From: Escherichia phage EC_OE_11
DNA: 64,000 nt
Direction: 5' to 3' (one strand)
Sequence record: OQ108497.1
Shown here: positions 7,808 through 35,371 of the stretch, in pieces
Layout: each line of letters begins with the position of its first letter
Numbering within the stretch: the stretch's first letter is position 1
Position numbers and translations under genes: made by a program
The notes under the pieces: model-generated
Databases searched by the model: none
What the model was told of the DNA's origin: nothing
What the model saw: the letters and a program-made list of their open reading frames with translations, nothing else

Positions 7808-8404
7808 TTACTCGAACCAATCGTCGCCAGCGCCAAACGCTTTAACTACATCGTAAATGTCAAGCCCAGCTTTACCTACACCATATGCTTTCAGTTTCCA
7901 TTCGCTATCTTCTCGCACCAGGGAGGCAACGTGGCAAATGGTGTTACCTGCAAGTTCTGGAGCCAAGAAGTCAAAGTCCAGCAGTTCAACATTACGTTCA
8001 TCATCGAAGATTTTAAGGAAACCTTCGGTAGCGTGACCAAGGCGTTTCTTACCCGTTTCGTCATCAATAGTAATTACGAATGCAATTTCCTGTGCTTCAG
8101 CAGAGATATTATCCAGTGTAACATCAATCTGCTCCATTTGTCCTACACCGTCACGAACATCTTCACCTGCAAAAGTAGAACGTTCAGGATCAAATTTCTG
8201 CGCGTAGCATACCAGGTGGCGAGGAGACAACAGTTCCGGCAGACCAGATGCGTTGTGTCGGCAAATCAGAGCACTAACATCCAGATCCAGTTTTTCGTTA
8301 GATTTCCAAGAGAATTCCAGACGAATGCGTTTCAGTGCTGGTGCGATCTTTTTCAGAGAAACTTTTTCGCTAGAACCTTTTTTCAGGGAAATTTTCTGAG
8401 TCAT
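7808..8404 (-). CDS. terD: TerD-domain protein (tellurite-resistance/stress family)
   Basis: Alignable to TerD consensus: ISLKKG..VSL, LDLDVSAL, EIAFVITIDD, SEWKLKAYGVG; AAGGAG SD. Confidence 0.8.
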   Translation of the reverse strand: MTQKISLKKGSSEKVSLKKIAPALKRIRLEFSWKSNEKLDLDVSALICRHNASGLPELLSPRHLVCYAQKFDPERSTFAGEDVRDGVGQMEQIDVTLDNISAEAQEIAFVITIDDETGKKRLGHATEGFLKIFDDERNVELLDFDFLAPELAGNTICHVASLVREDSEWKLKAYGVGKAGLDIYDVVKAFGAGDDWFE

Positions 8405-8476
8405 AATTTATTATCTCCTTTGTTGTTAATTTACGTTGTCTATTTTACTAATCTTTTCTACAAAGTCAAGCGTTTT

Positions 8477-9271
8477 TTACGCTTTTGCTCCAAATTTTTT
8501 AACCCACTCGCCAAACTCTTCGGATAACAGTTTATCGTAAAGTTCTTCATCAGACAAGGACAAATCTGCAATACCGATAAAATCAACATTATCGTACTCT
8601 TTTGCCAAGTCTTTCAGGAATTTAAAGTTTGCATTACCTACACCAACCATAAACCAGTAAACAGGTGTATTGCGGTGTTTGTTCAGCAAGCTACGTACTG
8701 CTGAAGTATCCATGTTCTCCCCGTCAGTTTGGAAGAAAATCATTGCAGGAGTACGATCAACTTGTGCATTAGTATCTACAACCTGTTCTACAACAGTACG
8801 TGTAACTTGTACAAGTTCTTTTTTACCAGTTAGTTTAGCAAGGAAACCTTTAGCCGGAACTTCTTCATACTCAACGACTTCGCGTGTAATATTTTTCATA
8901 GGTACACTGCCGAAGTATGTATCATAAATCTCTTGCATTACTGGAGCATAAGCTGTACCACCGTTGATGCAAACATTAGACATGCAAGAGCCGACATAAT
9001 CATCATACACATCAGCCGTTGCAGGAGGCAGTTCAAAAGAAGAACTATTGAAAGCCCACATGTCAATCTGTGCATTATCATCAAACTTCATACCAAACGG
9101 CAGCAGTTTACCTACAAAATCACTAACAGTGCCATCACGATACAGTTCACACATACTGCCCGAAATATCTAAGGCGCTACCGACACGAAGAACAACATCG
9201 TTAATCTTTTTCTTACGCAGAGATACAGTAAGAGTTTCTTGACGTTTTTTAAGACTGATTTTATTGGACAT
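8477..9271 (-). CDS. von Willebrand factor A domain protein (TerY-like)
   Basis: MIDAS-type DISGSM, GGTAY and FFQTDGE motifs; adjacent to TerD gene. Confidence 0.65.
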   Translation of the reverse strand: MSNKISLKKRQETLTVSLRKKKINDVVLRVGSALDISGSMCELYRDGTVSDFVGKLLPFGMKFDDNAQIDMWAFNSSSFELPPATADVYDDYVGSCMSNVCINGGTAYAPVMQEIYDTYFGSVPMKNITREVVEYEEVPAKGFLAKLTGKKELVQVTRTVVEQVVDTNAQVDRTPAMIFFQTDGENMDTSAVRSLLNKHRNTPVYWFMVGVGNANFKFLKDLAKEYDNVDFIGIADLSLSDEELYDKLLSEEFGEWVKKFGAKA

Positions 9272-9272
9272 A

Positions 9273-9542
9273 TTATTTCTCCTTTCTGAGTGTAATGTTA
9301 GTAACTTCTAAATCCACTTCTACTACTTCTGTATCATATAAAATACAGTTAAGTTGACCTCTTTGTGAACCATTCAGACACATTGCTTGGTTTGTATTAA
9401 CCTTAATAAACACTAAGTTTCTGAACGTATCTAAACCAGCATCTTGATAGGCAACATAATATACGAATGTATCACCTGCGTCAAGTTCTCCAAAAGATTT
9501 AGGTTCATCTGATTTGTCGTCTTTGATATTAAATTTAAGCAC
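9273..9542 (-). CDS. hypothetical protein
   Basis: 89-aa ORF. Confidence 0.45.
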   Translation of the reverse strand: MLKFNIKDDKSDEPKSFGELDAGDTFVYYVAYQDAGLDTFRNLVFIKVNTNQAMCLNGSQRGQLNCILYDTEVVEVDLEVTNITLRKEK

Positions 9543-10098
9543 TGTCTTCTCCTTTACCTGCTCTCAAGCCTAAATAGAAAGCCTCTCTGGTGATCTTTTG
9601 CAACTCGTTTAAAGAGATAGTTACAACTAAATCATCTTCAATTTCTAGCCTTGAGTCTTCTTCTGTCTCAATGCAAGTATTATGCACTTTGTGGTAAGGA
9701 TTGTCAACACGTTTAAATTTATTATTTTCAGTGCTGAAGAAGCAATCTGGATCTTCTTCTCCATCACCCCAGCCCTGGTTAGGGTCTTCTTCAGATCTTT
9801 CTGTTGGGATCTCACCTGTAAAGTGCTCTTCTAATACCAGAGCAATACCATCCCCAAGATCGGAAGAGAACATCAAATTACAAACTTCTTCCCAAGGCAT
9901 AGACCACTTGAATCTTTTACGATTGCCATGTTTATCTTCTTCGTTAGAGAAAACACCACCATAGCTATCATAATTGCCATACATCTCTTCAACAACTTTA
10001 CCACCTTTCAAAAGAAATAGGTAGCAAGGAGAGCCATCGAAAGAGGTAGAAAGAGCAGCATTACCAGACTCTTTGCACAAGAAACTAAAGCACCCCAT
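9535..10098 (-). CDS. hypothetical protein
   Basis: 187-aa ORF. Confidence 0.5.
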   Translation of the reverse strand: MGCFSFLCKESGNAALSTSFDGSPCYLFLLKGGKVVEEMYGNYDSYGGVFSNEEDKHGNRKRFKWSMPWEEVCNLMFSSDLGDGIALVLEEHFTGEIPTERSEEDPNQGWGDGEEDPDCFFSTENNKFKRVDNPYHKVHNTCIETEEDSRLEIEDDLVVTISLNELQKITREAFYLGLRAGKGEDSA

Positions 10099-10298
10099 TA
10101 TACACCAGCCTTAAGATCAATTAAAGCCAAAGTTGTTTCAGAATGTGTTTGCTCGTCTACAGGTGCAGTCATATGATAATACAAAAAGTCTTCGGCATCA
10201 TACCAATCTGACTCTTGACCTTGTTTCCAACCATCAATGAAAGCATCTTCCATGATGGTTTGTAACTCTTCACGAGTTAAGTGAATATCTTTACTCAT
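10098..10298 (-). CDS. hypothetical protein
   Basis: 66-aa ORF, coupled. Confidence 0.45.
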   Translation of the reverse strand: MSKDIHLTREELQTIMEDAFIDGWKQGQESDWYDAEDFLYYHMTAPVDEQTHSETTLALIDLKAGV

Positions 10299-10531
10299 TA
10301 CACATTCTCCTCTTTTACCAATTCCATCGTTGAACTATCAAAACCATCTTTAGAAGAATAGGTATAGACAGGACGTAGTTCTCGCAGGACAGTGAATACA
10401 TTAGGATCATCTAACCAAGCATCCTGGAGGAGAACATAACGATCTTCATTGTCGTACTGGACAGCAATCATAGAACCAGACAGTTTGTAAATTTTAATAT
10501 TCATAATATATTTCTCCTTAAAGTAGACCAC
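10298..10531 (-). CDS. hypothetical protein
   Basis: 77-aa ORF, coupled. Confidence 0.45.
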   Translation of the reverse strand: MVYFKEKYIMNIKIYKLSGSMIAVQYDNEDRYVLLQDAWLDDPNVFTVLRELRPVYTYSSKDGFDSSTMELVKEENV

Positions 10532-11621
10532 GTTTAACAGTTTGAATCATACCATCTTCAAGAGATTGTACTTCTTGGATGTAATCAATACGAGCAGCAC
10601 GGGCTTCAGTGTTGATTCGGTTAGTTTCTTCCAACATTTTAACTAAGTTTTCTTGATCGCGACGTAGTGTTTCAATATCCAATACTTGACGATTAGCAAG
10701 TTGTGTAGCTTCAATTTGGTTTTGTGCAGCCAGATCACTACCCATTGCAATAGCAGCATTAAATTCATTCAGTACATTGTTCTGTGTATCGGCTGCTTTC
10801 TTCTGGCGTAGACTTTCAATATACATAGAAAAGTTTGCAGAGTAAGCAGGGATAACATTATTCACAATGTTACGTGCTGATCGCATCAAACTTGCAGATA
10901 CTTTCTGCATACTTTGTACACGTGGCCCCATCTGAACACACAGTAAACGCAAGGCTTTCAGGTCTGCAATACGAATTTCAAGCAGATCCATAGTATCACG
11001 AGTACGTTGACGCTCTTCTACTTCATTTTCAGGTAGAGTATTAAGGCGAACTTCTTCTTTTTCATAAGTAGCTGTTAGAAGCTCTATATCCCTGTTTAAG
11101 CTAAGAGCATATTTTGCAATAGCCTCTTCTAAACGTTGCAGATATCGTAAAGAATCTTCTTCTTTTTTCAAGTCTGTTTGGAGTGTCTTTACCAAACCTT
11201 CAATACGATTATTGATGGTGTCAAACTCTCCAAACAAATCTTCTTTCATACCTAACACTTTCTTAACTAGCTTACCTAAACCTTTAGATTGTTTAATAGA
11301 ATTAGGATCAAGTTGCTTTGCTTGCTTAATAAGTGCAGTTAAACGTTCACTCATTTCATCTCCCTGGGATGAACGCTGGTGTTTAAGCACTTCAGCATTA
11401 AGGTTACGAAGAGTAAGTCCTGCATCAGCACCAACTTGTTCAATCTCTTCACGAGACATTGGAGGCAGCATTTGTACAGGTCGTGCAACAGCAGGTGCAT
11501 ATACAGGGCTTGCATCCATAGCACTTGGAGCAAACAAAGACTTACTCTTTTCTGTTGTTGCCGTGAATACACTCATTTCAGACGGTTTGCTTTTTACGGC
11601 ACTGATAAAAGGACTGGACAT
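10518..11621 (-). CDS. TelA-like toxic-anion-resistance family protein (tentative)
   Basis: 367 aa, disordered N-terminus then long coiled-coil; size, architecture and Ter context match TelA/KlaB; not motif-proven. Confidence 0.45.
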   Translation of the reverse strand: MSSPFISAVKSKPSEMSVFTATTEKSKSLFAPSAMDASPVYAPAVARPVQMLPPMSREEIEQVGADAGLTLRNLNAEVLKHQRSSQGDEMSERLTALIKQAKQLDPNSIKQSKGLGKLVKKVLGMKEDLFGEFDTINNRIEGLVKTLQTDLKKEEDSLRYLQRLEEAIAKYALSLNRDIELLTATYEKEEVRLNTLPENEVEERQRTRDTMDLLEIRIADLKALRLLCVQMGPRVQSMQKVSASLMRSARNIVNNVIPAYSANFSMYIESLRQKKAADTQNNVLNEFNAAIAMGSDLAAQNQIEATQLANRQVLDIETLRRDQENLVKMLEETNRINTEARAARIDYIQEVQSLEDGMIQTVKRGLL

Positions 11622-11689
11622 TCAATTTCCTCCATATTCTTTAGTAGATGGTGATACCTCTGTACCACCATCATAACACAAATTAAGTA

Positions 11690-12541
11690 TTAAACAAACA
11701 TATCTAAATAATTTGTAGTAATAAATGCTCCATCTGCTTCCAGATTAACATAACCAGTAGCATTAGTGGTTAAGAAATCCAGATCGAAGGACTCTTTAAC
11801 ACCCCGTACCTCAACACGAGAGATATCGAATACAGGTAGTGTAACAGCCTCTTCGTGCAATACCGTACCTTTGTAGGTTGCCTTAATGATAAACTTGATA
11901 TTACCCGTTCCAGCATCATACAAAACACTTTCAAACCCTTTGAGAGTATATTTATCACCAGAAGTGAAGTGCAAAGTTGCTTTGTTTACAGTACGTTTTT
12001 TACGAGGAGTTCCTTTCACACGTTTATGATCACTACGTTTTTTGTATTTAGGAATGAATACAAACGATACACTCTCAAGAAAGGTATCAACATCAAGGAT
12101 TTTAATATCCTCTGTTGCAGCAAATTTTGAAGTCGTTGCATCAAAATGCTTTCCCCTGCGATCATACATAAAGATATCAAACCGATCTTCTAAATCAAAC
12201 AAATTATGTATCTTAATTTCAGAATGCTTGCACATTGCAGCAACCTTAAACTCTTCAAAACGTGGGTGTTCTACCAGTTCTTCAAGTTTTACACCAAAGA
12301 CAGTATATGGTTTCGAAGTTTTTTCTGGTGTTGGCATTACAGAAGCATAATCACCGATTGCGCTCTTAAAGCAAAATTGTTCTTGACCTGTATTTTTACC
12401 AACGAATTTACAGTATTCGTCATCGTGCATGCTTTCCTTGGTAGTACCAACAAACTCAAAACCATCTTTATTCTTCTCAAGAATTTCTTGATTAAAGATC
12501 CAACCTTCCAGGCGATACACTTTACCAACTTCTAGTTTCAT
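11690..12541 (-). CDS. hypothetical protein
   Basis: 283-aa ORF. Confidence 0.55.
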   Translation of the reverse strand: MKLEVGKVYRLEGWIFNQEILEKNKDGFEFVGTTKESMHDDEYCKFVGKNTGQEQFCFKSAIGDYASVMPTPEKTSKPYTVFGVKLEELVEHPRFEEFKVAAMCKHSEIKIHNLFDLEDRFDIFMYDRRGKHFDATTSKFAATEDIKILDVDTFLESVSFVFIPKYKKRSDHKRVKGTPRKKRTVNKATLHFTSGDKYTLKGFESVLYDAGTGNIKFIIKATYKGTVLHEEAVTLPVFDISRVEVRGVKESFDLDFLTTNATGYVNLEADGAFITTNYLDMFV

Positions 12542-12576
12542 CTGTTTCTCCTTCTTGTTTAATCTGTATTAAATTA

Positions 12577-13182
12577 TTAACGACGACGTGAGCTACTAAA
12601 ACTACGTTTCGACGAAGAATAACTTTTCGAAGACTTACTATAAGAGCTAATAGGACTTGAGTAAGACTTACGAGCAGAGTAATCACTATTCACTTTTGTT
12701 GTTGATGGGCGTGAATACGTTTGTACACTTTGCTGCTTAATTGTGTTTTGTTTAGTGGTTGTATATGTATTTACAGGTTTATCATAAAAACTACGCTTTT
12801 GTGTTGTATATGATTTACTGTTAGTTGTAGGAGCAGCATTGTTATTAATAATGGTTGTATTGCTACCACCATCTCTATAACCACCACCGCCACTATTACC
12901 ACTCAACATATGACCAAGAAGCATACCTGTAGCAAATTCACCTACACCAGAAGAACTACTACCGCCTCCTTGCACAACAACTGTTGAAGGTTGTGCAGGT
13001 GCTGCTTGAACAACTTGAGGTGCAGGTTGATTTACATATTGTTCATCTACCATCTGATTTGGTGTTTGTTGGTAACGTTGATTTTGTACATTTTCAGAAT
13101 CATCACAACCTACCAGCAATACACTACCTAATACAACTGCAACAATAAAAGATTTAATGTTTTTCATTTGTAACCCTCTCAT
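12577..13182 (-). CDS. lipoprotein, low-complexity S/T/Y/K-rich
   Basis: Signal peptide with LLVGC lipobox; C-terminal repetitive S/Y/K region. Confidence 0.55.
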   Translation of the reverse strand: MRGLQMKNIKSFIVAVVLGSVLLVGCDDSENVQNQRYQQTPNQMVDEQYVNQPAPQVVQAAPAQPSTVVVQGGGSSSSGVGEFATGMLLGHMLSGNSGGGGYRDGGSNTTIINNNAAPTTNSKSYTTQKRSFYDKPVNTYTTTKQNTIKQQSVQTYSRPSTTKVNSDYSARKSYSSPISSYSKSSKSYSSSKRSFSSSRRR

Positions 13183-13360
13183 TTAAAGTCTCAACACAAT
13201 TTTTAAAATCCCTAGAGAAACAATACATCTGTTCTCCGTTCCTGTTGATAGTAATTGTATGATTATCAATGTATGTTGTCAAGATAAAAATCAAACAAAA
13301 TAACCCTAAAGCAAAACAAATATTTTCAAACAGAATCCAAAGAACACGTAAAACCACCAT
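13154..13360 (-). CDS. small membrane protein (hypothetical)
   Basis: 68-aa hydrophobic ORF. Confidence 0.35.
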   Translation of the reverse strand: MVVLRVLWILFENICFALGLFCLIFILTTYIDNHTITINRNGEQMYCFSRDFKNCVETLNERVTNEKH

Positions 13361-13375
13361 CAGATCACCTCAACA

Positions 13376-13393
13376 AAGCCCCCGAAGGGGCTT
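13376..13393 (-). terminator. intrinsic terminator-like hairpin downstream of terC
   Basis: aaGCCCC-cgaa-GGGGCtt followed on minus strand by TTTGTT. Confidence 0.5.
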
Positions 13394-13399
13394 AATGAA

Positions 13400-14377
13400 T
13401 TAAGCAACAGCCTGGTCTTCTTTTTCAGGGAAGATTAAACTTGCAATGACACCCAGCCCCAGAGTACCTAACACAATATACATACTGATCGTCGGATCAA
13501 TGTGTGCTGGCAGGAAACTCACTTTTGCGTGCAGAGTTTCTGCAAACGGGTGATACATCAGTTTTACACCCACAAATACCAGGACTACGATAACTGCTTT
13601 CTCCAGATGAACCAAATATTTCAGTGCAACACTAAGGACAAAGAACAGAGCACGTAGACCTAAAATTGCACACAGCATTGAAGAAAATACAAGCAGAGGT
13701 TCTTGTGTCACTGCAATTACTGCTGGAACAGAGTCTACTGCAAAGATTACGTCAACCATTTCCATTACAAACACACAAACCAGAGCCGGAGTTGCTACAC
13801 GAACACCATTTTTGATTGTGAAGAACTTCTCACCATCCATCTGATCAGATACAGGGAACAGCTTACGAACAATGCGAGTAGCCCAGTGTTTAGAGTAATC
13901 AACTTCTGCGTCATTATCTCCAGCGAATACCATTTTAGCTGCACAGAAAAGGATGACCGCACCGAAGAAGATATTAACATACCAGCCCAAACTCAACAAA
14001 TAAGTGCCTACTGCTACAAACACACCTCGGAAGACAATCGCACCTGCAATACCCCAAAGTAGAATCTTGTGTTGCAAGTGTGTGCTTTTAATACCAAAAC
14101 TTGCGAATACTGCCACAAATACTACTAAGTTATCTACAGAAAGAGATTTCTCCAACACATATCCACTCAAGAACAAGCTCGCAAAATCAGCACCGTGCTG
14201 GAAGTATACAAAACCATAGTAGGCTAATGATACCCCAATCCAGAAAATTGACCAACCAATTGCAGATTTAAATGAAATTTCTTTGTTTTCTCTGTGTCCA
14301 AAGAAATCAATACAAATCGACAACACTAAAATACCCACTAAAACAACCACATCAATAATTGGGAAACCCAGTTGCAT
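13400..14377 (-). CDS. terC: TerC-family integral membrane protein
   Basis: Multi-TM protein with duplicated TerC signature (LEKSLSVDNLVVF...LWGIAGAIVFRG and AVDSVPAVIAV...ILGLRALFF). Confidence 0.8.
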   Translation of the reverse strand: MQLGFPIIDVVVLVGILVLSICIDFFGHRENKEISFKSAIGWSIFWIGVSLAYYGFVYFQHGADFASLFLSGYVLEKSLSVDNLVVFVAVFASFGIKSTHLQHKILLWGIAGAIVFRGVFVAVGTYLLSLGWYVNIFFGAVILFCAAKMVFAGDNDAEVDYSKHWATRIVRKLFPVSDQMDGEKFFTIKNGVRVATPALVCVFVMEMVDVIFAVDSVPAVIAVTQEPLLVFSSMLCAILGLRALFFVLSVALKYLVHLEKAVIVVLVFVGVKLMYHPFAETLHAKVSFLPAHIDPTISMYIVLGTLGLGVIASLIFPEKEDQAVA

Positions 14378-14395
14378 TCTTATCTCCTCTTTAAT

Positions 14396-14414
14396 GCGGA
14401 GGACAATCCTCCGC
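14396..14414 (-). terminator. GC stem-loop just upstream of terC SD (terminator/attenuator)
   Basis: GCGGAGG-acaat-CCTCCGC hairpin between 14455..14703 and terC. Confidence 0.4.
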
Positions 14415-14454
14415 TCTATGTCTTATACTATAAACTGTTTTTAAAGAAAGTCAA

Positions 14455-14703
14455 CTAGTTCAGTTCTGTAATTTTAAGTTTATCTTCTTTGTTAATGATA
14501 GGGAAAGCTACAGCATCACCTACGTCATCAATAAAGCAAATAGCAAGACCACCTTCCACTTTACTAATCTGACCCTTAAAGGCGCGATACGGGGCAGGAA
14601 CTTTATCTCCATCTTCAAGGATAATAGCCTCGTAAACCTTGCCGATAGTACAATCACGAGTGTTTCTAAATTTTTCAAGCACTTCAACATTTACTTTACG
14701 CAT
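14455..14703 (-). CDS. hypothetical protein
   Basis: 82-aa ORF. Confidence 0.5.
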   Translation of the reverse strand: MRKVNVEVLEKFRNTRDCTIGKVYEAIILEDGDKVPAPYRAFKGQISKVEGGLAICFIDDVGDAVAFPIINKEDKLKITELN

Positions 14704-14718
14704 ATAAAAAATCCTCTC

Positions 14719-14925
14719 TTATTTGTTAGATTGAAAGATACCACGAAGTACCGCAAGAATGAACGTCACACAGACTACACTCCAAAACGTTACAGGAACA
14801 TGATGCCAGTCTAAACCGATAATGTCAATCATATAGTTGTATGCTAAAAGCAGCAGCCAACTAGGGATTAACACAATCAAAAACACAACAATAAAACAAC
14901 CTAATACTGCTAAAACACCTGCCAT
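14719..14925 (-). CDS. small membrane protein
   Basis: 68 aa, two predicted TM helices. Confidence 0.5.
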   Translation of the reverse strand: MAGVLAVLGCFIVVFLIVLIPSWLLLLAYNYMIDIIGLDWHHVPVTFWSVVCVTFILAVLRGIFQSNK

Positions 14926-14934
14926 ACTTTCTCC

Positions 14935-15651
14935 TTATTTCAGTTTGTAAACAATTACATTTAAACCTTTGTTTACTAGAGTTTCTTCGATCATAAGTTT
15001 TACAATATTCCAAGAACCTCCAGCCAAACCACAACCAAGCATTGGTAAACCTACAATTTTACCGCCTGAAGATACAACATCGTCTCCCATACTATCTAGC
15101 GCATTGTAGATAGCTTCATAATTCAGATCACGCTTACCTTCCTCACGACTACTATAACCATATTGTCCATATAAATTATAAATTGTCAAATTGTTTTCTG
15201 TATATTTGGTAAACGTACCTAATTTTTTATAATCACCACGTTTAGTGGCACAATCTGCTTTAAACGCACCAGGCCACTTGCTTTTAATTTTTGGTGCAAT
15301 ACCACTACCCATAGTGCAAAAACAGTTACAGCAGTGTGCTATAGCGTCTATATCGCCTCTCTCGGCTGCTGCTAAAAGATCACCGTATACCTCAACGATA
15401 CCTGCTGGATAACTTGTTACAATTTCATCTTCCCAGTACATTTTCTCTACACCACCGATCAGTGCAAAGTTTTGTGTAATGCGATCATCAATATAGTTAA
15501 GACCTGAAACATACACAGCGTATTCATCCTGTGCTGTAATACCTTGCACACGAATTCTTAAGACACCATCTTTATCTGTTGCTACACGCCCAAAATCTTT
15601 TTCTGTAATATTGGTGATAGGATCTCCGAAAGTCATTACTTTATTAGACAT
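14935..15651 (-). CDS. macro-domain-like protein (putative ADP-ribose binding/processing), tentative
   Basis: DAIAHCCNCFCTMGSGIA resembles macro DAIVNAAN..LGGGGV motif, later LPMLGCGLAGG; start moved to ATG at 15651 (SD AAAGGGGA) to clear PRTase overlap. Confidence 0.4.
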   Translation of the reverse strand: MSNKVMTFGDPITNITEKDFGRVATDKDGVLRIRVQGITAQDEYAVYVSGLNYIDDRITQNFALIGGVEKMYWEDEIVTSYPAGIVEVYGDLLAAAERGDIDAIAHCCNCFCTMGSGIAPKIKSKWPGAFKADCATKRGDYKKLGTFTKYTENNLTIYNLYGQYGYSSREEGKRDLNYEAIYNALDSMGDDVVSSGGKIVGLPMLGCGLAGGSWNIVKLMIEETLVNKGLNVIVYKLK

Positions 15652-16501
15652 AATAATCCCCTTTAACATTAGATTTGTTGATAATGTTGCTTTCAAAAAA
15701 TTGACGTAGGAAATCAAAGTTCTCTTTGTATTTTTCAATGTTATTGTAGCCTTCTGCAAGGCAACCAAAGAACAGTTGTTCTACATAATACAAAGGAAGC
15801 TGTGAAAGTGCAATTTTAAAATCAACTTCGCTTTGACTCATTAGATACTTAATAGGACGAACCAAACATTTAGCATCAGTTTCTTGCTTAATCATTTTAA
15901 TAAAAGCTGCCAGGTTATTGATATAGTTGAAGTTAAGTGCAGCTTCGGTGTTGGCTTCTGTACCTTCATACTTTGCAAAGTACAGGAAAAACGTATCGTT
16001 TTCAACACCTTCTTTGTCTAAAATTTCAATAAGTTTTTCTTCGTGTGTTCCTGTAATATTAACATCATCAATGAAAATCAGAGTTTTATTACCCCAGAAA
16101 TCACGATTGATAGAGAAAGTGTCACCATCGATCAAAGCCTTACGATCTTCTTTGCTAAGAAATCCATAATCATTGATATAGCTCACTTTACGATGAACGA
16201 TATCCCACTCCACTGGTTTACCACCTTTGATAGAGATTAGGTAGTTGAGGTGATCTACAAAATGTTCAGATAACACTGTAGCTGCATTTTTCACATAGTT
16301 ATATGGAGATGGAATAACAACAAAACTTTCATTTACCAGTCGTTCTTCATACTTAGAAAAGAAACTTTCAGCCAGAATGCGCCCCATTCTTTTTGCTGCC
16401 TGGTTACTACCAAACTTTAGTTTGGAATAATCTGCAATGTTAAATTTTGCTTCCTTCAGGTTAGTAAAAGTATTAGCAAAATGTTGAATTTGATTACGCA
16501 T
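15644..16501 (-). CDS. phosphoribosyltransferase-like protein (Ter-associated PRTase type)
   Basis: PRPP-binding-like motif LIFIDDVNITGTHE; AGAGGA SD. Confidence 0.6.
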   Translation of the reverse strand: MRNQIQHFANTFTNLKEAKFNIADYSKLKFGSNQAAKRMGRILAESFFSKYEERLVNESFVVIPSPYNYVKNAATVLSEHFVDHLNYLISIKGGKPVEWDIVHRKVSYINDYGFLSKEDRKALIDGDTFSINRDFWGNKTLIFIDDVNITGTHEEKLIEILDKEGVENDTFFLYFAKYEGTEANTEAALNFNYINNLAAFIKMIKQETDAKCLVRPIKYLMSQSEVDFKIALSQLPLYYVEQLFFGCLAEGYNNIEKYKENFDFLRQFFESNIINKSNVKGDYYV

Positions 16502-17150
16502 TAATAAGTTCCTCTTTTTTAAGTTTAGCCAACAAGTTTTCTGGATTAATAATATGACAGAACTTCATCCCTATGTCAACAGCTTTTCCATCATAGATCA
16601 AACTATCTCCAACGTGTAAGATCTCCTCTGGTGCGAGATCAAACGTTACCATTTCATCAAAAGAGAGTTTAAAAAACCTAGGATCTGGTTTACACAAGCA
16701 AAACTCATCAGAAAAATGCATAAAGTCGAATGGTAATTTTGTCAAGCCAGAATATACAGCTAAGAAACTACCAGGTACAAAATTGGTATTGCTCTTAATA
16801 CTCAAAGAATAGGTTGAACTTAGCTCTTCCAACTTCTTGCAAAGTTCAGGGTTTAATGTTGGAGGATGTTTTATAAACATTGCTAAACAGTCTCTTTTTA
16901 ACCCATCCACCTTATCAAGATCAATGTTCAAATGAGCAGAAAGTGTTTCCCAAGCATTTCTAGATGTTCCACAAATGCCTTTTTCTGCTTTTAAATCCAA
17001 GAGAGTTTTTACCTCTTTATATACGGTAGCTGCTTCTACCTCAGAACAAGAGGCATACTCGGCAATAACCTTGTTGCGTTCTTCTGCATACAAAGGATTA
17101 GCAGTAATAAGAGTATTCCATACATCAAAAGAAATATGCTTAACAGTCAT
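16494..17150 (-). CDS. HAD-superfamily hydrolase (phosphatase)
   Basis: Motif I ISFDVWNTL and C-terminal HVGDSLIYDG; start set to ATG at 17150 with GGAGG SD. Confidence 0.6.
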   Translation of the reverse strand: MTVKHISFDVWNTLITANPLYAEERNKVIAEYASCSEVEAATVYKEVKTLLDLKAEKGICGTSRNAWETLSAHLNIDLDKVDGLKRDCLAMFIKHPPTLNPELCKKLEELSSTYSLSIKSNTNFVPGSFLAVYSGLTKLPFDFMHFSDEFCLCKPDPRFFKLSFDEMVTFDLAPEEILHVGDSLIYDGKAVDIGMKFCHIINPENLLAKLKKEELINA

Positions 17151-17319
17151 TTTTAATCCTCCGTCCAAAAGAATATCATCTGCTTAATTTTATTGATCTC
17201 TTGATGTAGTAACTTTCCAGCATGTAATTGATCTTTAATATTGACAGCAAGAATTTCAAGCTCCGTCAGTTTTTCTTGGATAGCTTTATATTCATCATCT
17301 GTAAGCATTTTCTTCCCCT

Positions 17320-17523
17320 TTAGAATGGTAATCTTTGTATGTCACTTGTCCCCACACCAAGAAGTCTAGCAATATCCTTATCTAAAAGCAACTCTTTTTG
17401 TTCTAAAATGTTAATCAGATCTCCTAATACTTCTTTAATGTCACGATCATTTTTAGCAACGTGACCACCTGCGGTATCAACTTTATCTTTAAAAATAAAA
17501 TAATGATCCATAATACCCTCCAT
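17320..17523 (-). CDS. hypothetical protein
   Basis: 67-aa ORF. Confidence 0.45.
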   Translation of the reverse strand: MEGIMDHYFIFKDKVDTAGGHVAKNDRDIKEVLGDLINILEQKELLLDKDIARLLGVGTSDIQRLPF

Positions 17524-17530
17524 ATAAATA

Positions 17531-17550
17531 AAGGAGGCTTTCGCCTCCTT
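17531..17550 (-). terminator. intrinsic terminator (bidirectional-looking)
   Basis: aAGGAGGC-tttc-GCCTCCTt with T-rich flanks on both strands, downstream of AAA+ ATPase gene. Confidence 0.55.
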
Positions 17551-17557
17551 TTATCAC

Positions 17558-18718
17558 TTAGTAAGAACGACCACCAAACACATACTCTGTGTAGTTTTTA
17601 CGTTCTTTGTTTTTAATAACAACTTCAATGTTGTTACCTTTATCATCGGTGAACATAAAGTGATAACCGTCACCACCCATTGTACGGATGTGTTTTTCAT
17701 CATACGTTAGCAAGATACGGTCTACACCCCAGTAGTAGTCACCTTCTTCATCTTTATCTTCTACGGTAACGATCCCTTCCATTTCAGGAAGATGCTCTTC
17801 ACCTAGTTTATGGTCTACAGCTACAACATAACGATTACCACTAAACAAACCTTGTGCTGTCATACCGTCAATATCGGTATCTGCCGAAACATCTCCTGTA
17901 CGATCTACACCGTTAACTTTCAGAAGTTTAACCTCTTTTGCAGCATAGCGGTGTTCAGTAATACTGATACCCATTAGTGCAAGTGCATCAGAGAATTTGT
18001 CATTAGGGTAACGGTTAAGTTCTTCTACTAATGACTGAACAATATCAAAGTTCAAATCCACGGAGAGATTATAAAGCGTTTCAAAGTCTGGTAAGAAGGC
18101 TTTGTTCTCCAGATTTTTAGCCAGATAATCATCCATAGTAGCTTTAGGTAGTTTCTTATAGCTAAAACTGTAGAAAATACGGCTAGGACGATTACGCAAA
18201 AATTCTGATACATAACCATCATTTTTAGTCAATACAAACAGTTTGTCGTAGCCACCAACACCATCCAGCAGGGTAAGCAAACCATCTTGTGCATCTTTTT
18301 CAGCATACAGTTTATCAAATTCATCGATCATAATCATTACAGGTTGTGTGATTTTAGACATAAAATTGATAAAGCCTTCACCATTAAAAGCACTGCCGAT
18401 AGAAATAGTAGGAATACCCATTTCACGAAGAGCAGAAGACAGCATTTTAGCTTGCAAAGTTTTACCGCTACCTTTCGTACCTTCAAGGAGAACACCTGTG
18501 TTTTTACCTTTGCGGCTAAGGAACGTTTTGATAATACGTTCTGATTTATCATCAGTATCACCGTATGTTACTGAAGGGACTTCCATATCGTTTTTAGGAT
18601 ACAGGAAGAACTCACCACTTTGAGTAACACCTACACCAAAAGTTCCTGCTGGAATTTCTTCAATATCTGTACCAGATTTCTGACGCAGGAAGATTTGATT
18701 GCCGAATACTGTAAACAT
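17558..18718 (-). CDS. AAA+ ATPase (paralog 1)
   Basis: Walker A GTKGSGKT, Walker B MIMIDEFDK, sensor-1 FVLTKN; paralog of 32445..33572. Confidence 0.7.
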   Translation of the reverse strand: MFTVFGNQIFLRQKSGTDIEEIPAGTFGVGVTQSGEFFLYPKNDMEVPSVTYGDTDDKSERIIKTFLSRKGKNTGVLLEGTKGSGKTLQAKMLSSALREMGIPTISIGSAFNGEGFINFMSKITQPVMIMIDEFDKLYAEKDAQDGLLTLLDGVGGYDKLFVLTKNDGYVSEFLRNRPSRIFYSFSYKKLPKATMDDYLAKNLENKAFLPDFETLYNLSVDLNFDIVQSLVEELNRYPNDKFSDALALMGISITEHRYAAKEVKLLKVNGVDRTGDVSADTDIDGMTAQGLFSGNRYVVAVDHKLGEEHLPEMEGIVTVEDKDEEGDYYWGVDRILLTYDEKHIRTMGGDGYHFMFTDDKGNNIEVVIKNKERKNYTEYVFGGRSY

Positions 18719-18738: not shown

Positions 18739-19209
18739 TTAGTCAGATTCCCAAATGTTGTCTTTCTTAACCCACATTCGTTGATTATCTGAACCTCTAT
18801 AACGTTTCGTTGTTGGTTGATTCATATCATACTTACCATCTATCACTATGTCAACCAGTTTTTTAATTTTTTCTGGAATTTCTTCAAAAAGATATCCTGT
18901 ATATAAAACAATATCTTTTTTGTTTCCAAAACAATCTCTTACCTTCTCAAGAACATACTCTACAGTGTCAATGTTCTCTTTGTCAAGAGGTTCACCACCT
19001 AAAACTGTTAATCCTTTAATGAAAGGTCGAGATAAATCTTCCAAGATAAGATCTAATGTTTCAGCAGTGAACTCTTGTCCGTAGTTATACGACCAGGCTT
19101 TCTGGTTAAAGCAGCCACGGCAACCGTGGCTGCAACCGCTCACCCACAAAGAGCATCTTACACCGTCACCGTTGAGCATGTCAACAGGTTCATATCCGGC
19201 GTAATTCAA
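18739..19209 (-). CDS. nrdG: anaerobic ribonucleotide reductase activating protein (radical SAM)
   Basis: GCSHGCRGC CxxxCxxC cluster; 4-bp overlap with nrdD. Confidence 0.8.
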   Translation of the reverse strand: MNYAGYEPVDMLNGDGVRCSLWVSGCSHGCRGCFNQKAWSYNYGQEFTAETLDLILEDLSRPFIKGLTVLGGEPLDKENIDTVEYVLEKVRDCFGNKKDIVLYTGYLFEEIPEKIKKLVDIVIDGKYDMNQPTTKRYRGSDNQRMWVKKDNIWESD

Positions 19210-23340: not shown

Positions 23341-25077
23341 TTAGTTTACCAGTTTATTTATGTCTGGTAAAAGATTTATTTCACCTAAAAAATCACCTTC
23401 ACCTTCCTCTAGCCAACTCTCATATGCTTGTGCATGATTATAGTTACCATCAAAAGACTCTGCAACAAATTTTTCTACAGTTTTTCGAGATGTGCCAGCG
23501 CCAAATACACCAAGTTTAATACCATTGATCGGTAAAGTGGTGCTTGTAGGTACTTTCTCTGTTGCAACACGGTTGATATCTATAATCTCCTGTACGGTTG
23601 TGTTCCATTGTAAGCATTTAACACAACGGGTATGCGCTACATACAGTAGGTTTCGCTCTGCCTCTTCTAGTCCTACCCACTCACCAGTCTTTTTATCATA
23701 GTTGGAAGGAAAATCATTAGCAACAATAACCTGATCCCACTCCAAACCTTTAGACTTATGTGCTGTAGTCAATGTGACTTTTGCTGTAGGAGAATTTCTA
23801 TGCGTTCTAAGTGTATGTGCTATAGTGTTTGCCTTACCAGAAACTACAATGTTTAACAAGCGTTTAGCATCTGGATCAGCCTCTGCACACTCGACAAATT
23901 CATTCCAGTCTGCGTAAGGTAATACAGTTTCATGTTTTACTTTCTCAATATCTCCTCTCCGAAGAGCATTAACACTATCTACCATAGAGATAAAATCCCT
24001 GGTATCTACGTTAATAATAATTTCTTCCCCATCTGCAATACGATCCATTGCCTCCATAAGCAAGGTTAAATTCTTGCGAAAGATGATGGTGTAAGGTTTT
24101 GTATAGTCTACAACATCTGATTTGTAGCTACCTACTACAGTATCAAAGCCTTTACCAACCAAAGGATGACGCAAAGGTTCTTTATCACTTAAAATCATAT
24201 TCGCAATGTTTGCCACTTTGGGGCCAAAACGGAAGCAAGCAGTTAATGGAAGCTCTGCCCCATATGTAGAGGTTTCCTTCATCATATTTTGGCTTCCACG
24301 GAACTGGTAGATGCTCTGATATTCATCCCCCACCACCACTACTTGTTTTGCAGATTTAGCATTTCGCAGAATAGACAAGAATGCAGGGTTAACATCCTGG
24401 AATTCATCCCCAAAAATAATGTCATAACCAAGATCAGCACCTGATAACTCAAACAATTTTACATAGGTGTCATGAGTCATCAAAGTATCTGTGTTAGGAT
24501 CAATGCGCTCTCGCCACAATTGTTTTGCATACTTAACTACTTCTGTAATTAGTTTGTGTTCGTTAATACCTTTTCTTTTAATATCTGCAAGATGTACACT
24601 AGGAAAATGTTTACGGCTGATAAAAGGATCATCCGAAAATTCAAACTTACCTACGGTTTGCTTGATCATTAAACCAATCATAGCACGAGTTAAAAGTGTT
24701 TTCCCTCGTTTATCAATAAGATTATTAATCTTGAATTTCTTTGCTATCTCGCTACCTGTACCTGCAACGTTAACATACTGTCCTTCTGGTCGTGACAGTT
24801 TTGCACGTAAACGATGATCCAGGAATTGATAGCAAATGGAATGCAATGTACGGCATTCTACATTTGGTGGCATCTTACGCCGTGCTTCTTCTGCCATGCT
24901 TTTATTGAAAGCTAAGTAAAGAATGCGATCTTCTGTACTGTTAGCCAGCAAATAAAGTGTTGACGTTTTGCCTGACCCAGATTTAGCTTGGATAGTTAAA
25001 AAGCGATGATCTGGAAAAGCCTCCTTAATAGCTGTTTGCTCTTCTGTTGGAGTAAAACTCAACTCTTTCTTAGCCAT
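23341..25077 (-). CDS. UvrD/PcrA-like SF1 DNA helicase
   Basis: Walker A AKSGSGKTST, DEFQD, C-terminal TAHKSKGLEWDQV; start moved to ATG at 25077 with AGAGAGG SD. Confidence 0.75.
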   Translation of the reverse strand: MAKKELSFTPTEEQTAIKEAFPDHRFLTIQAKSGSGKTSTLYLLANSTEDRILYLAFNKSMAEEARRKMPPNVECRTLHSICYQFLDHRLRAKLSRPEGQYVNVAGTGSEIAKKFKINNLIDKRGKTLLTRAMIGLMIKQTVGKFEFSDDPFISRKHFPSVHLADIKRKGINEHKLITEVVKYAKQLWRERIDPNTDTLMTHDTYVKLFELSGADLGYDIIFGDEFQDVNPAFLSILRNAKSAKQVVVVGDEYQSIYQFRGSQNMMKETSTYGAELPLTACFRFGPKVANIANMILSDKEPLRHPLVGKGFDTVVGSYKSDVVDYTKPYTIIFRKNLTLLMEAMDRIADGEEIIINVDTRDFISMVDSVNALRRGDIEKVKHETVLPYADWNEFVECAEADPDAKRLLNIVVSGKANTIAHTLRTHRNSPTAKVTLTTAHKSKGLEWDQVIVANDFPSNYDKKTGEWVGLEEAERNLLYVAHTRCVKCLQWNTTVQEIIDINRVATEKVPTSTTLPINGIKLGVFGAGTSRKTVEKFVAESFDGNYNHAQAYESWLEEGEGDFLGEINLLPDINKLVN

Positions 25078-25078
25078 T

Positions 25079-25555
25079 TCAACCTCTCTTAATTTGTTTA
25101 ACAAGCATAGGAACAAAATCTCGTTTTAAAATTTGTTCAATAATGTGATCAGGTAGCTGTTGGAAATTATAATTAAAAGCTACTGTTTCACCTTTAGGTG
25201 TTTCTACTCGCACATATAACATGTTGCGAAGTTTATCCACTTGTGCTGTATATTCTAAACCACGTAATTGATGCATTGCAAACATCAAATCATCAGTTTC
25301 AGTTTGGAATCTATCCCTTGTCTGCATCAAGGATAAGGCAAAAGGTAGATTTTCCCTAAGAGCCACCTTCTTAGGCACTAGTGAAGGGAAATACTCCCCA
25401 ATAACTTCCTGTGTAAGCTGAATACACTCTTTTTCAAGCTGGTTTTGTTCCTTGAGTTCACAAACACTTTTTTGTAAAGTGTTAACCTCTTTTTGCAAAG
25501 CTGCTAGTTGAGCACTTAACTTTCTTTTTTGATTACGACCAAAACGTTTAGACAT
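25079..25555 (-). CDS. hypothetical protein (coiled-coil N-terminus)
   Basis: 158-aa ORF. Confidence 0.5.
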   Translation of the reverse strand: MSKRFGRNQKRKLSAQLAALQKEVNTLQKSVCELKEQNQLEKECIQLTQEVIGEYFPSLVPKKVALRENLPFALSLMQTRDRFQTETDDLMFAMHQLRGLEYTAQVDKLRNMLYVRVETPKGETVAFNYNFQQLPDHIIEQILKRDFVPMLVKQIKRG

Positions 25556-31807: not shown

Positions 31808-31981
31808 ATGAGTTTCTTTGTTACAGTATTTATGGCTATCTGGATTGTAGTCTCACTCGTTCTTTTCCTGGTGGGTTGTCTGGAAGAGATTAAGAAAGCA
31901 GTTATTTGCGGTTTCTTTGGCTTTATTATCTCTCCTGCCTGGATGTGGTTCTTCATTATGATTGGTTTCCTTAAAAGGTAA
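31808..31981 (+). CDS. small membrane protein (57 aa), not in ORF track
   Basis: ATG 31808 with GGGAGAAAGG SD; two TM helices. Confidence 0.45.
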   Translation: MSFFVTVFMAIWIVVSLVLFLVGCLEEIKKAVICGFFGFIISPAWMWFFIMIGFLKR

Positions 31982-32444: not shown

Positions 32445-33572
32445 ATGAAATACACGATTTATGGTGATATTGTAAGTGTAAATAAAGATATGGGTGTGGA
32501 ATCTAATTATCTTCCACCTGGATTCTATACTGTTAGTCGTGATCCCCTTGGCAATTATTTTTTAAGCCGTGGTAATCTAACAGGTGTACCGGATGTTCTG
32601 TATGGTGAAACAGAAAAACGAGCAAATCACGTTATCCGTACATTCCATCGCCGGAGTGCACAAGGTAAAAATACAGGTTTGCTTCTGACAGGAACTAAGG
32701 GCAGTGGTAAAACTATGTTAGCCAAGCTCATTAGTCGTGACCTTGTAGAAGAAGGTATTCCAACTATTATGGTTACTCAAGCCTACAGTGATGCTAATTT
32801 CATTGAACTTATTAGCAAGATCACCGACAAAGCAGTGATTATTTTTGACGAGTTTGATAAAGTATATGAGAAGAAACAAGATCAAGAAGCACTTCTCACT
32901 TTGTTAGATGGTACTGGCAGTGGTAATAAACTGTTTATTCTAACTAAAAACAGTGGCTTTATCTCTGAATTCTTTCTAAATCGTCCTAGTCGTGTGTTTT
33001 ATAATTTTAATTATGATAAAATCTCACTAGAAACTATGATTGACTATTTAGATAAAAACCTGGATAACAAAGCACACTTTGATAATTTCCAAAGACTTTG
33101 GGATGTAAGTTTAGAGTTGTCCTTTGATGTGATCCAAGGTATAGTAGAAGAACTTAATTTCTACCCTGATTTATCCTTTAAAGAATGCATCTCTATGATG
33201 GGCGTTTCTTTGGGTGGTGGTAATAAATGGGATATCAGTAGCGTTATTATTAATGGAAAACTTCAGAAAGTTAGCTGGGTATCTAGTTGGCATAACTTTA
33301 CACCTGCAATCTTTTTAGGTGGCTCGTGCACACTAGACGTGTACTTGTCATCTCCAAGTGATGCAGATTCTAAAGAAGCCCTTGCTAATAGCTCTTACGT
33401 GGTTTTTGATGATGAAGGCGATGCTCGAATTCCGTTGAATGCGACAAAAATGAAAGCAGACCTTATCACAGGCGGTAAAATCGTTGTGTTTAGTGATGAT
33501 CCAGAAGATTCTTTCCGTATTGTTCTGGAACCAACTATCACCAATGGTGCAACTTTGGCAAGTGTGTTTTAA
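32445..33572 (+). CDS. AAA+ ATPase (paralog 2)
   Basis: Walker A GTKGSGKT, Walker B IIFDEFDK, FILTKN; collinear with 17558..18718. Confidence 0.7.
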   Translation: MKYTIYGDIVSVNKDMGVESNYLPPGFYTVSRDPLGNYFLSRGNLTGVPDVLYGETEKRANHVIRTFHRRSAQGKNTGLLLTGTKGSGKTMLAKLISRDLVEEGIPTIMVTQAYSDANFIELISKITDKAVIIFDEFDKVYEKKQDQEALLTLLDGTGSGNKLFILTKNSGFISEFFLNRPSRVFYNFNYDKISLETMIDYLDKNLDNKAHFDNFQRLWDVSLELSFDVIQGIVEELNFYPDLSFKECISMMGVSLGGGNKWDISSVIINGKLQKVSWVSSWHNFTPAIFLGGSCTLDVYLSSPSDADSKEALANSSYVVFDDEGDARIPLNATKMKADLITGGKIVVFSDDPEDSFRIVLEPTITNGATLASVF

Positions 33573-33585
33573 GTAAGCCAGCAAA

Positions 33586-33610
33586 TAAAAACCCGCTTCG
33601 GCGGGTTTTC
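33586..33610 (+). terminator. intrinsic terminator
   Basis: AAACCCGC-ttcg-GCGGGTTTTCTTGTAT; identical copy at 60338-60361. Confidence 0.8.
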
Positions 33611-33646: not shown

Positions 33647-34819
33647 ATGGTAGCACTAAAATCATGGGAACAATATAAAGAAGAATTAATACCCCTTGCT
33701 AAAAATCACAATATTCAAATCTTGGGTTATGTTGGTGAATGGAAAGGGAACAAGACTAAACTTAAGCTATCTTGCCCTAAACATGGAGAGTGGAACACCA
33801 CGAACATTAATGATTTTAAGAAGGGACGTGGTTGTCCTATCTGTTCTGGTAAGAAGCCGTTAACATGGGAAACAGAATTGCCGATCTTGGAAGAGATAGC
33901 ACAGAAGAGGGGGTATCAGGTGTTAGGGTACGTGGGAGAATGGAAAGGGAATAAAACAAAACTTGATTTGTTGTGTCATTGTGGTAATAAATGGGATACT
34001 ACAAGTATTAACAATTTTAAACGTGGTAGCGGTTGTCCACAATGTAAGAGGGAGAGACAAACAATGTCCGACGATCAACATATTGCAGATTTCTTTTCTA
34101 CAGGGGAATTTAAGGAAGGCACTATCTTCACCAATACAGGGAAACGTAACAAGCGTGATGCAGTATGGATGGTTGAGTGTCCTGTTTGCTCCCATGATGA
34201 ATATGTTCAAGCAGGTGTTTGTGATGGTAAATTTTACTCTGCAGGACATAACCTTAAACAAGGGTATATTCCGTGTCGTTGTGGGAACTATCAGTATACA
34301 GAAGACCAGATCACCTATAGGGTAAAAAAGGAAGTAGAAGGGAAAGGGTATGTCTGGGTAGATTGGATTACCAAACCCTCTTCTATAGGTAAGTTTAAAT
34401 ATCTTTGTCTTGTGCATGGTGAGCAGATAGGGAGTGCTCGTAATTTATTAAGCCTCGGTCAAGGTTGTCCACAGTGTGCTGGTCATAATCAACAGCAATT
34501 ATATATTAATATTGTTAAAGATAATGATATTATAGTTGCTCTTAAGTTTGGCATAGCTAAAGATAGTGACAGGCGATTAAACAATCAAAATAGGCGTAAT
34601 ATGTTTTTTATGGAGCGTATTTGTTTATATGATTTTAGTACAGTGAAACAGTGTAAGGCTGCTGAAAGAGCTATAAAGAAAAAACTAAAAACTGGTATTT
34701 TAACAGCAAGAGAGTTGAAAGATGGTTATACAGAAACAGTAAGTGTTTCTGATTTGGAAAATCTTCAAAAAATTATTACACAATATGGTGGCAAGTTAGT
34801 ATACAGTAAGGAGGTGTAA
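33647..34819 (+). CDS. zinc-ribbon-repeat protein with C-terminal GIY-YIG-like (T5orf172/MUG113-type) domain
   Basis: Two about 45-aa repeats (GYVGEWKGNKTKL..C..G.W.TT.IN.FK.G.GCP.C) plus more CxxC pairs; C-terminal LYINIV...KFGIAKDSDRRL...AERAIKKKL. Confidence 0.45.
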   Translation: MVALKSWEQYKEELIPLAKNHNIQILGYVGEWKGNKTKLKLSCPKHGEWNTTNINDFKKGRGCPICSGKKPLTWETELPILEEIAQKRGYQVLGYVGEWKGNKTKLDLLCHCGNKWDTTSINNFKRGSGCPQCKRERQTMSDDQHIADFFSTGEFKEGTIFTNTGKRNKRDAVWMVECPVCSHDEYVQAGVCDGKFYSAGHNLKQGYIPCRCGNYQYTEDQITYRVKKEVEGKGYVWVDWITKPSSIGKFKYLCLVHGEQIGSARNLLSLGQGCPQCAGHNQQQLYINIVKDNDIIVALKFGIAKDSDRRLNNQNRRNMFFMERICLYDFSTVKQCKAAERAIKKKLKTGILTARELKDGYTETVSVSDLENLQKIITQYGGKLVYSKEV

Positions 34820-35371
34820 ATGCGGATTACTGATAAGTATGTGTTCTTCTTCTCGGCAAAAGATGAATTTAGCAACTGGTATCTATCATCTTTTATTGAA
34901 CCTTTAGCTCCCAAGTATAATAATTCTATTACAAGTTCTGTTGAATTTACTTGTGTGGAACAATATATGATGTGGAGAAAAGCATGTTTGTTTTATGATT
35001 ACAACATTGCATCTTCTATTTTAACCGGAGATCTAAGATATACAGGAGAAAAAGAACAGGCATATTATAAGCGACTAGGTAGATTAGTTAAAGATTACGA
35101 TGAAGCTACTTGGACTTCTTTACGGGAGAAGATTGTCAAGCGTGGTTTGTATCTTAAATACACACAAAATGAAGATCTCAAAAATAAACTTATAGCTTAC
35201 GCAGATAAGGAGTTTGTAGAGGCAAGTCCTTATGATTCTATTTATGGTATCAAAATGGGGATGTGGGATCGGGACGTGGAAAATAAGGATTGTTGGAAAG
35301 GACAAAATCTTTTAGGAAAATGGCATACAGACCTTGCTGTTTATCTAAAATCACAATCTGATATTTCCTGA
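34820..35371 (+). CDS. NADAR-family protein (YbiA-like)
   Basis: FFFSAKDEFSNW, CVEQYMMWRKA, EASPYDSIYGIK, GQNLLGKW align to YbiA motifs. Confidence 0.7.
   Translation: MRITDKYVFFFSAKDEFSNWYLSSFIEPLAPKYNNSITSSVEFTCVEQYMMWRKACLFYDYNIASSILTGDLRYTGEKEQAYYKRLGRLVKDYDEATWTSLREKIVKRGLYLKYTQNEDLKNKLIAYADKEFVEASPYDSIYGIKMGMWDRDVENKDCWKGQNLLGKWHTDLAVYLKSQSDIS

Follow-up and report, generated by a model that had tools for sequence, protein, structure and literature searches.

Two diverged paralogous AAA ATPases of the PHROG 2376 family, with shortened pore loops, in a phi92-like coliphage

Bcs1 is a mitochondrial translocase of folded proteins, and together with Bacillus YjoB it represents the nearest solved fold to two ATPases, here called A and B, that are encoded by Escherichia phage EC_OE_11. 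We analysed a stretch of 64,000 nucleotides of this phage (sequence record OQ108497.1; hereafter the window). Both proteins resemble classical AAA proteins (Cdc48/p97, VAT, NVL/Rix7, FtsH, spastin/katanin, Msp1) in their Walker A and B (DE) motifs, sensor-1 asparagine, R-P-x-R second region of homology (SRH), LLxxxDG segment and absence of a sensor-2 arginine, and differ from them in shortened pore loops, a single AAA module, and N- and C-terminal domains for which no relatives were detectable (in Pfam for both domains, in the PDB for the N domain). Compared with Bcs1 and YjoB, they have neither the BCS1_N nor the YjoB N-terminal domain, carry no transmembrane (TM) anchor, read DE rather than ED in Walker B, and possess an extra C-terminal beta domain. 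With FtsH they share the fold of the AAA module and the SRH, but they lack the M41 domain, the HExxH motif and the TM helices, and their pore loops are truncated. The one group from which they do not differ is the phage family PHROG 2376, which they match over the full length and with the same architecture, and of which they are members.

The genome that carries both genes is that of a phi92-like coliphage (Justusliebigvirus, Stephanstirmvirinae). The pair itself is already known, since upwards of 50 near-identical genomes in GenBank carry loose annotations of both genes: the two ATPase regions match Escherichia phage JohannJBalmer and about 50 further deposited genomes at 99-100% identity, and the orthologs are labelled 'hypothetical protein', 'ATPase', 'putative ATPase or Zn metalloprotease' or 'FtsH-like protease'. 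A first-pass annotation, made from the letters of the window alone, had picked out the two as divergent AAA+ paralogs on opposite strands, and both open reading frames are present with exactly the extents that it gave:

17558..18718, minus strand: ATPase A, 386 amino acids, ortholog of phi92 gp190 / bas62_0073
17960..18715, minus strand: segment of A aligned to B by BLAST (N domain, AAA core and lid; 47% identity)
17561..17953, minus strand: A-type C-terminal beta domain, 131 amino acids, the fastest-evolving part of A
32445..33572, plus strand: ATPase B, 375 amino acids, ortholog of phi92 gp221 / bas62_0104
33216..33569, plus strand: B-type C-terminal beta domain, 118 amino acids

ATPase A consists of an N beta domain (residues ~1-55), the AAA large subdomain (~56-190), a four-helix lid (~191-252) and the C-terminal beta domain (~253-386), and B has the same four-part architecture.

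Pairwise alignment leaves little doubt that A and B arose by duplication. BLASTP joins residues 2-253 of A to residues 3-256 of B with 119/254 identities (47%), 70% positives and 2 gaps (E 1e-81). The similarity reaches well beyond the Walker motifs, into the large subdomain (55%) and the lid (47%), which speaks against the independent acquisition of two unrelated ATPases. A neighbour-joining (NJ) tree of 252 core columns joins the A clade and the B clade as sister groups in 94 of 100 bootstraps, with the jumbo-phage and more distant members outside. The Walker A motif GTKGSGKT is common to both (A80, B83), as are sensor 1 (FVLTKN at A161, FILTKN at B164) and the sequence NRPSR (A176, B179). 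The Walker B motif had been given as (I/M)IDEFDK, which is right for A (IMIDEFDK); B reads IIFDEFDK, and the shared motif is therefore DEFDK. The collinear extensions that had been proposed at both ends are also found. The N-terminal one is alignable on its own (tblastn of 60 amino acids, 27-28% identity, E 3e-6 to 5e-6). The last ~120 residues of A and B yield no BLAST alignment and are 14% identical; the profiles of the two ortholog groups nevertheless align there (hhalign E 7.8e-5, probability 61%), and the order of strands and helices is the same in the AlphaFold models of A and B. No third copy of the ATPase was found in the 64-kb window. By domain, the identities are as follows:

A and B: N domain 29%, AAA large subdomain 55%, lid 47%, C domain 14%
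A and its Klebsiella-phage ortholog (P0002): N domain 84%, AAA large subdomain 91%, lid 89%, C domain 50%

Orthologs of B diverge in the same pattern, the C domain being fastest.

The match of A to PHROG 2376 ('ATPase', category 'other') has an E-value of 5.7e-104 and places residues 1-376 on profile positions 2-359 of 363, while that of B (E 1e-107) places residues 1-367 on positions 1-357. In a search space of 1.84 billion cluster representatives, 3,221 clusters at 50% identity match the family profile with E<=1e-30, nearly all of them 350-430 amino acids long; in these the profile covers the N domain and the core, and the C-terminus varies. PHROG 2376 has a common architecture: an N-terminal beta domain of ~55 residues, then a core of the classical AAA type, then a beta domain of ~120 residues at the C-terminus that evolves fast. 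A tblastn search with the conserved part retrieved 372 phage records, among them members of Stephanstirmvirinae (including phAPEC8, where the family member is gp014), Herelleviridae, Sextaecvirus and Lactococcus 949-like phages, 350-kb jumbo phages of the GAP32, Erwinia and Xanthomonas types and ~90-kb phages of Salmonella, Aeromonas, Proteus, Cronobacter and Acinetobacter. Moazamivirus has homologs too. Judged by these searches, PHROG 2376 is a large, architecturally uniform and essentially phage-specific family. In its longer members Pfam detects AAA only, with no informative domain fusions. A literature search gave no papers on PHROG 2376 or on phi92 gp190 and gp221, and likewise nothing usable on PacK/Stk2, which had been considered as a possible relative.

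The AAA+ assignment of the first-pass annotation can be narrowed to the classical AAA clade, in a form whose pore loops are truncated. Both proteins pass the gathering threshold of Pfam AAA (PF00004; 29.4 bits for A and 38.9 bits for B, cutoff 21.2) and have the classical Walker A and B motifs, the latter in the context MIMIDE in A and VIIFDE in B. Among 74 aligned members the columns G80, G83, G85, K86, D132, E133, N166, R177, P178 and R180 are invariant, so that sensor-1 N166 and R177-P178-x-R180 form an intact SRH; no conserved arginine that could serve as sensor 2 was found among the invariant or near-invariant lid columns (191-252). The best matches of the family profile are Cdc48/p97, VAT, NVL/Rix7, Afg2, Pex1 and Msp1 (E 1e-11 to 3e-6), and the alignment to p97 places RPsR on RPGR and LLTLLDG on the LLxEMDG region. 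Because of these invariant motifs, the RPGR/LLxEMDG alignment and the missing lid arginine, the family as a whole is assigned to the classical AAA clade.

What sets the family apart from its classical relatives is the pore. In the profile alignment, p97/Cdc48 are longer than the family by 5-7 residues in the interval from Walker A to Walker B and by 9-12 residues beyond Walker B, and these two stretches are the pore loops. The Walker A lysine and the Walker B aspartate are 46 residues apart in A, in B and in 103/117 scored homologs, compared with 53 in p97 D2, and Walker B is followed by LLxLLDG after 15 residues, compared with 27 in p97 D2; pore loop 1 is thus ~7 and pore loop 2 ~12 residues shorter than in p97. 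The beta2-alpha2 connection in the AlphaFold2 model comprises only the six residues 108-113. Neither A nor B has the combination expected of a threading unfoldase, that is, an aromatic-hydrophobic-Gly pore loop 1 and a full-length pore loop 2. The top single-sequence PDB match of B is 6g2v_A, a p97 chain of 275 residues, whose aligned sequence is also without the pore-loop-1 residues.

The AlphaFold2 models, which are of monomers, have pLDDT values of 86.5 (A) and 84.7 (B). From N- to C-terminus they consist of five short strands (~1-45), the AAA alpha/beta subdomain, the four-helix lid and a beta-rich C-terminal domain. The Bcs1 AAA domain is the top structural match of both, with a small lead over other AAA+ folds; since the fold searches used whole models, their matches are dominated by the AAA core. 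In closest fold, in the want of a proper pore loop and in having no sensor II, both proteins fit the Bcs1/YjoB branch. Foldseek against BFVD returned full-length alignments (~380-435 columns) to proteins of Erwinia, Salmonella, Agrobacterium, Proteus and Lactobacillus phages. A PDB profile search with the isolated N domain and Pfam searches with the N and C domains (E<=10) gave nothing credible.

With about as much confidence as doubt, we propose that A and B are ring-shaped AAA remodelers of folded partners that work without threading and were retargeted through their terminal domains after the duplication. The intact catalytic motifs suggest that each would hydrolyse ATP within a ring oligomer; unfolded polypeptide would not be threaded through the pore, and the nucleotide-driven movements of the subunits would instead be passed on to the N- and C-terminal beta domains, which may hold on to a folded protein or complex so as to remodel it, assemble it or set it free. 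By analogy, such a style of action would resemble that of Bcs1, YjoB or NSF-D2/p97-D1 rather than that of ClpX or FtsH. Following the duplication the motor has been conserved and the terminal domains have diverged, for which reason different partners for A and B are most likely. The first-pass annotation had likewise suggested two distinct substrates or partners: the divergence pattern (N 29% and C 14%, against 55% in the AAA core) fits this, no partner was identified, and separate partners are best called plausible but unproven. Several points tell against the proposal. Most members keep an aromatic residue (Y/F111) in the shortened loop-1 region, so that some contact with the pore is possible, and there are the weak profile matches to clamp loaders (PHROG 168, E 1e-8) and Hda (E 4e-7). 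A and B might also be co-assembled in one mixed ring instead of acting separately. No partner gene is conserved across the neighbourhoods of distant family members, and our literature search gave no tested function for any member of PHROG 2376.

The likeness to Bcs1 raises the question of whether A and B are Bcs1 orthologs, i.e. membrane-proximal translocases or chaperones of folded proteins, with the membrane proteins encoded upstream of B as an anchor. Apart from the structural match, the pore loop that is truncated in A and B is missing in Bcs1 and YjoB (PMC7994207), two proteins with two TM helices each directly precede B, and BCS1 orthologs have been reported in all three jumbo-phage groups, with a proposed role in the membrane-proximal handling of folded proteins (Iyer et al., PMC7824862). 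The jumbo-phage 'BCS1' of that study is possibly the PHROG 2376 family, which does occur in such phages (GAP32, Erwinia, Xanthomonas XbC2, Atu_ph07). We nevertheless consider orthology quite unlikely: Pfam finds no BCS1_N domain in A or B even with the E-value limit raised to 1, no TM helix was found in either (maximum 19-residue Kyte-Doolittle score 1.0), and Walker B is DE in A, B and all 74 aligned relatives, where Bcs1 and YjoB have the signature ED (PMC9565160). Moreover, Cdc48/p97 lead the listed sequence and profile matches in the PDB, among which there is no Bcs1 chain, and neither A nor most of the distant members have a membrane-protein gene next to them. The reading as FtsH-like, ATP-dependent Zn metalloproteases, which many GenBank records have adopted, is hardly credible. 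There is no Peptidase_M41 domain (Pfam), no HExxH and no TM segment in A or B, the C-terminal region is a beta domain of ~120 residues, and the pore loops, on which FtsH depends for translocation, are cut short; as far as sequence goes, a protease identity is ruled out, and the protease labels are unsupported because neither protein has a protease domain. A role as accessory AAA+ proteins of DNA replication (of the clamp-loader, helicase-loader or Hda/DnaC type), with two loader subunits or tasks, seems distinctly improbable. It could draw on weak matches to the clamp-loader PHROGs 168, 11838 and 5846 (E down to 1e-8), the DnaC-like PHROG 50 (E 1e-6) and Hda TIGR03420 (E 4e-7), on the location of A downstream of a UvrD helicase block, and on a homolog in Staphylococcus phage CF1 that is part of the replication module, where it follows helicase, primase, RNase H and RecJ. 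PHROG 168, however, reaches only E 1e-8 and 4e-5, compared with 1e-104 for PHROG 2376, and the NCBIfam matches are sub-threshold P-loop noise that falls far short of the cutoffs (Hda 29.8 bits against 194.8, IstB 19.9 against 200). The SRH is the classical R-P-x-R and not SRC or box VII, a sensor-2 arginine is not among the conserved residues, the C-terminal domain is rich in beta structure and not the helical collar of clamp loaders, and the family profile favours Cdc48/p97. More specific than our proposal, and a special case of it rather than a contradiction, is the speculative reading in which A and B are ATP-driven devices of host takeover or counter-defence, whose C domain would bind a host protein that the motor dismantles or sequesters, two paralogs thus serving two host factors. 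We think it unlikely. The C domain does evolve far faster than the motor within ortholog groups (50% against 84-91%), both genes lie among small early-type genes and auxiliary modules (Ter, Macro, PRTase, NADAR, CapR), and the family is widespread in virulent large phages of unrelated hosts; on the other hand, PADLOC matches are negligible (E ~1e-3), and the C domains are 97-100% identical within Justusliebigvirus, which gives no sign of a current arms race at the genus level.

A different origin for A, by horizontal acquisition from another phage lineage instead of duplication within its own, also deserves consideration. A is as distant from B (47%) as it is from jumbo-phage members (~47% in the core), and it forms a clean presence/absence between nrdG and a 67-amino-acid gene in comparison with phAPEC8, where nrdD-nrdG is directly followed by the homolog of the small gene with no ATPase between. 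Against such a xenolog, which we regard as rather improbable and in any case less likely than an old duplication, stand the sister relationship of the A and B clades in the NJ tree and the presence of an A-like gene, 57% identical, at the same position downstream of a UvrD-YqeY block in a more distant, metagenomic relative. The A-type C domain occurs in 59 phage records, only of Justusliebigvirus and related Klebsiella phages, and the B-type in 132, including Phapecoctavirus, which has the B type only and no A. Given the sister clades and the UvrD-YqeY-linked position shared by the distant relative, it is simplest to assume that the gene was duplicated long ago, in the ancestor of the ~150-kb Stephanstirmvirinae-like phages, and that Phapecoctavirus later lost A. 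The two copies are a fixed feature of a genus and no peculiarity of this genome; the duplication, old and real, is an ordinary one, paralogs being common in 150-kb phages.

Two sets of records turned up alongside these searches. The B-type C-terminal domain is matched at three separate places in PV659873.1 (Escherichia phage WPEC1, 161 kb); this may mean that the copy number of the family varies further, or that part of the assembly is duplicated. Four 'Campylobacter phage' records of ~146.4 kb each, A150, A145, C3 and A110a (MG065639, MG065645, MG065656, MG065689), have matching regions with at least 95% DNA identity to Justusliebigvirus and ATPase C-terminal domains that are 97-99% identical to those of the genus. 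Because DNA and C domains are near-identical to those of a coliphage genus, the Campylobacter jejuni host label of the four looks doubtful.

These results are of use chiefly because they correct the protease annotation and draw attention to a very large pore-loop-less AAA family. The label 'Zn metalloprotease / FtsH-like protease' should read 'AAA ATPase, PHROG 2376'. With its thousands of clusters at 50% identity, its conserved and distinctive architecture and its truncated pore loops, PHROG 2376 is a reasonable target in cataloguing the conserved 'dark matter' of phages; the A/B pair offers a ready-made domain-swap design for studying recognition by the terminal domains. A wider idea, which we advance tentatively and hold to be improbable as a whole, is that PHROG 2376 would constitute an unrecognised major class of phage motors, a pore-loop-less classical AAA ring for folded clients, comparable to Bcs1 or YjoB, in which the fast-evolving C beta domain would serve as a plug-in that selects the client. 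In that case Justusliebigvirus would have duplicated and retargeted this motor, the client of A being tied to the nucleotide-metabolism locus (nrdD/nrdG, anaerobic ribonucleotide reductase) and that of B to the small membrane proteins; if true, the genus would be a natural experiment in which one motor was duplicated and aimed at two clients.

The two genes had been placed about 15 kb apart in different transcription units. The actual spacing is 13.7 kb, and the transcription units are indeed different; the surroundings of both genes also agree with the earlier description, in which A neighbours a Ter/nrd block and B follows two small membrane proteins. A has nrdG and nrdD on one side and, on the other, the genes for HAD, PRTase_3, Macro, TerC, TelA, vWA-TerF and TerD. 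Each of the two small proteins before B has two predicted TM helices (Kyte-Doolittle, 19-residue window, peaks 1.97-2.97). The features around the two ATPase genes are:

7808..17168, minus strand: Ter-type stress module and adjoining genes, conserved across Stephanstirmvirinae
7808-8404, minus strand: TerD
8477-9271, minus strand: vWA-TerF-like
10518-11621, minus strand: TelA
13400-14377, minus strand: TerC
14935-15669, minus strand: Macro
15644-16501, minus strand: ComF-like PRTase_3
16494-17168, minus strand: HAD hydrolase
17320..17523, minus strand: 67-amino-acid gene directly downstream of A, acidic and conserved, no Pfam match
17530..17551, minus strand: terminator-like hairpin after A, 9-bp stem then ATTTAT, 7 nucleotides past the A stop; a consensus match only
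31808..31981, plus strand: small TM gene 1 upstream of B, 57 amino acids
31996..32433, plus strand: small TM gene 2 upstream of B, 145 amino acids, ending 12 nucleotides before the B start
33588..33609, plus strand: terminator-like hairpin after B, AAAACCCGC-TTCG-GCGGGTTTT, 16 nucleotides past the B stop

Because a strong terminator-like hairpin follows within 7-16 nucleotides, each ATPase gene appears to close its own transcription unit; in phage Paula terminators are annotated also at the position of the B-gene hairpin. A promoter-like site inside nrdG, upstream of A (18854..18826), agrees with the consensus at 11 of 12 positions. Both A and B stand among genes of early or middle type (nucleotide metabolism, small open reading frames resembling host-takeover genes), outside the virion module. 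We compared the neighbourhoods of the family in phAPEC8, Salmonella SE131, Bacillus Thurquoise, Staphylococcus CF1, Klebsiella phi1_175008, Erwinia Kaldavass and two metagenomic contigs, and found that small membrane proteins adjoin some family members, though not most.

Two candidate associations of A were rejected. A functional link to the Ter/PRTase block is contradicted by Phapecoctavirus, where the block is present and A is absent. The 67-amino-acid gene is kept at the same spot in phAPEC8 (49% identity, E 4e-22), which has no A, and it is therefore not a dedicated or obligate partner of A. Phages of Rhizobium, Caulobacter and Brevundimonas and jumbo phages of Xanthomonas likewise encode the PRTase_3 of the Ter block.

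Directly downstream of B, the region 33647..35371 (plus strand) encodes a 390-amino-acid protein with three CapR-homology (treble-clef zinc) repeats and T5orf172, labelled 'endonuclease' elsewhere, and then a NADAR-domain protein. Taken together, the NADAR gene near B and the Macro domain near A point to ADP-ribose-related functions in the genome. In a metagenomic relative with an A-like ATPase, a gene of WGR-PARP_reg-PARP architecture (L010 10792..12105), resembling poly(ADP-ribose) polymerase, lies a few kb downstream. Finally, the UvrD/Rep helicase open reading frame of the window (23341..25116, minus strand; 591 amino acids) is uninterrupted, whereas its counterpart in the near-identical phage JohannJBalmer contains an intein of 1041 bp, so that the presence of the intein varies within the genus.

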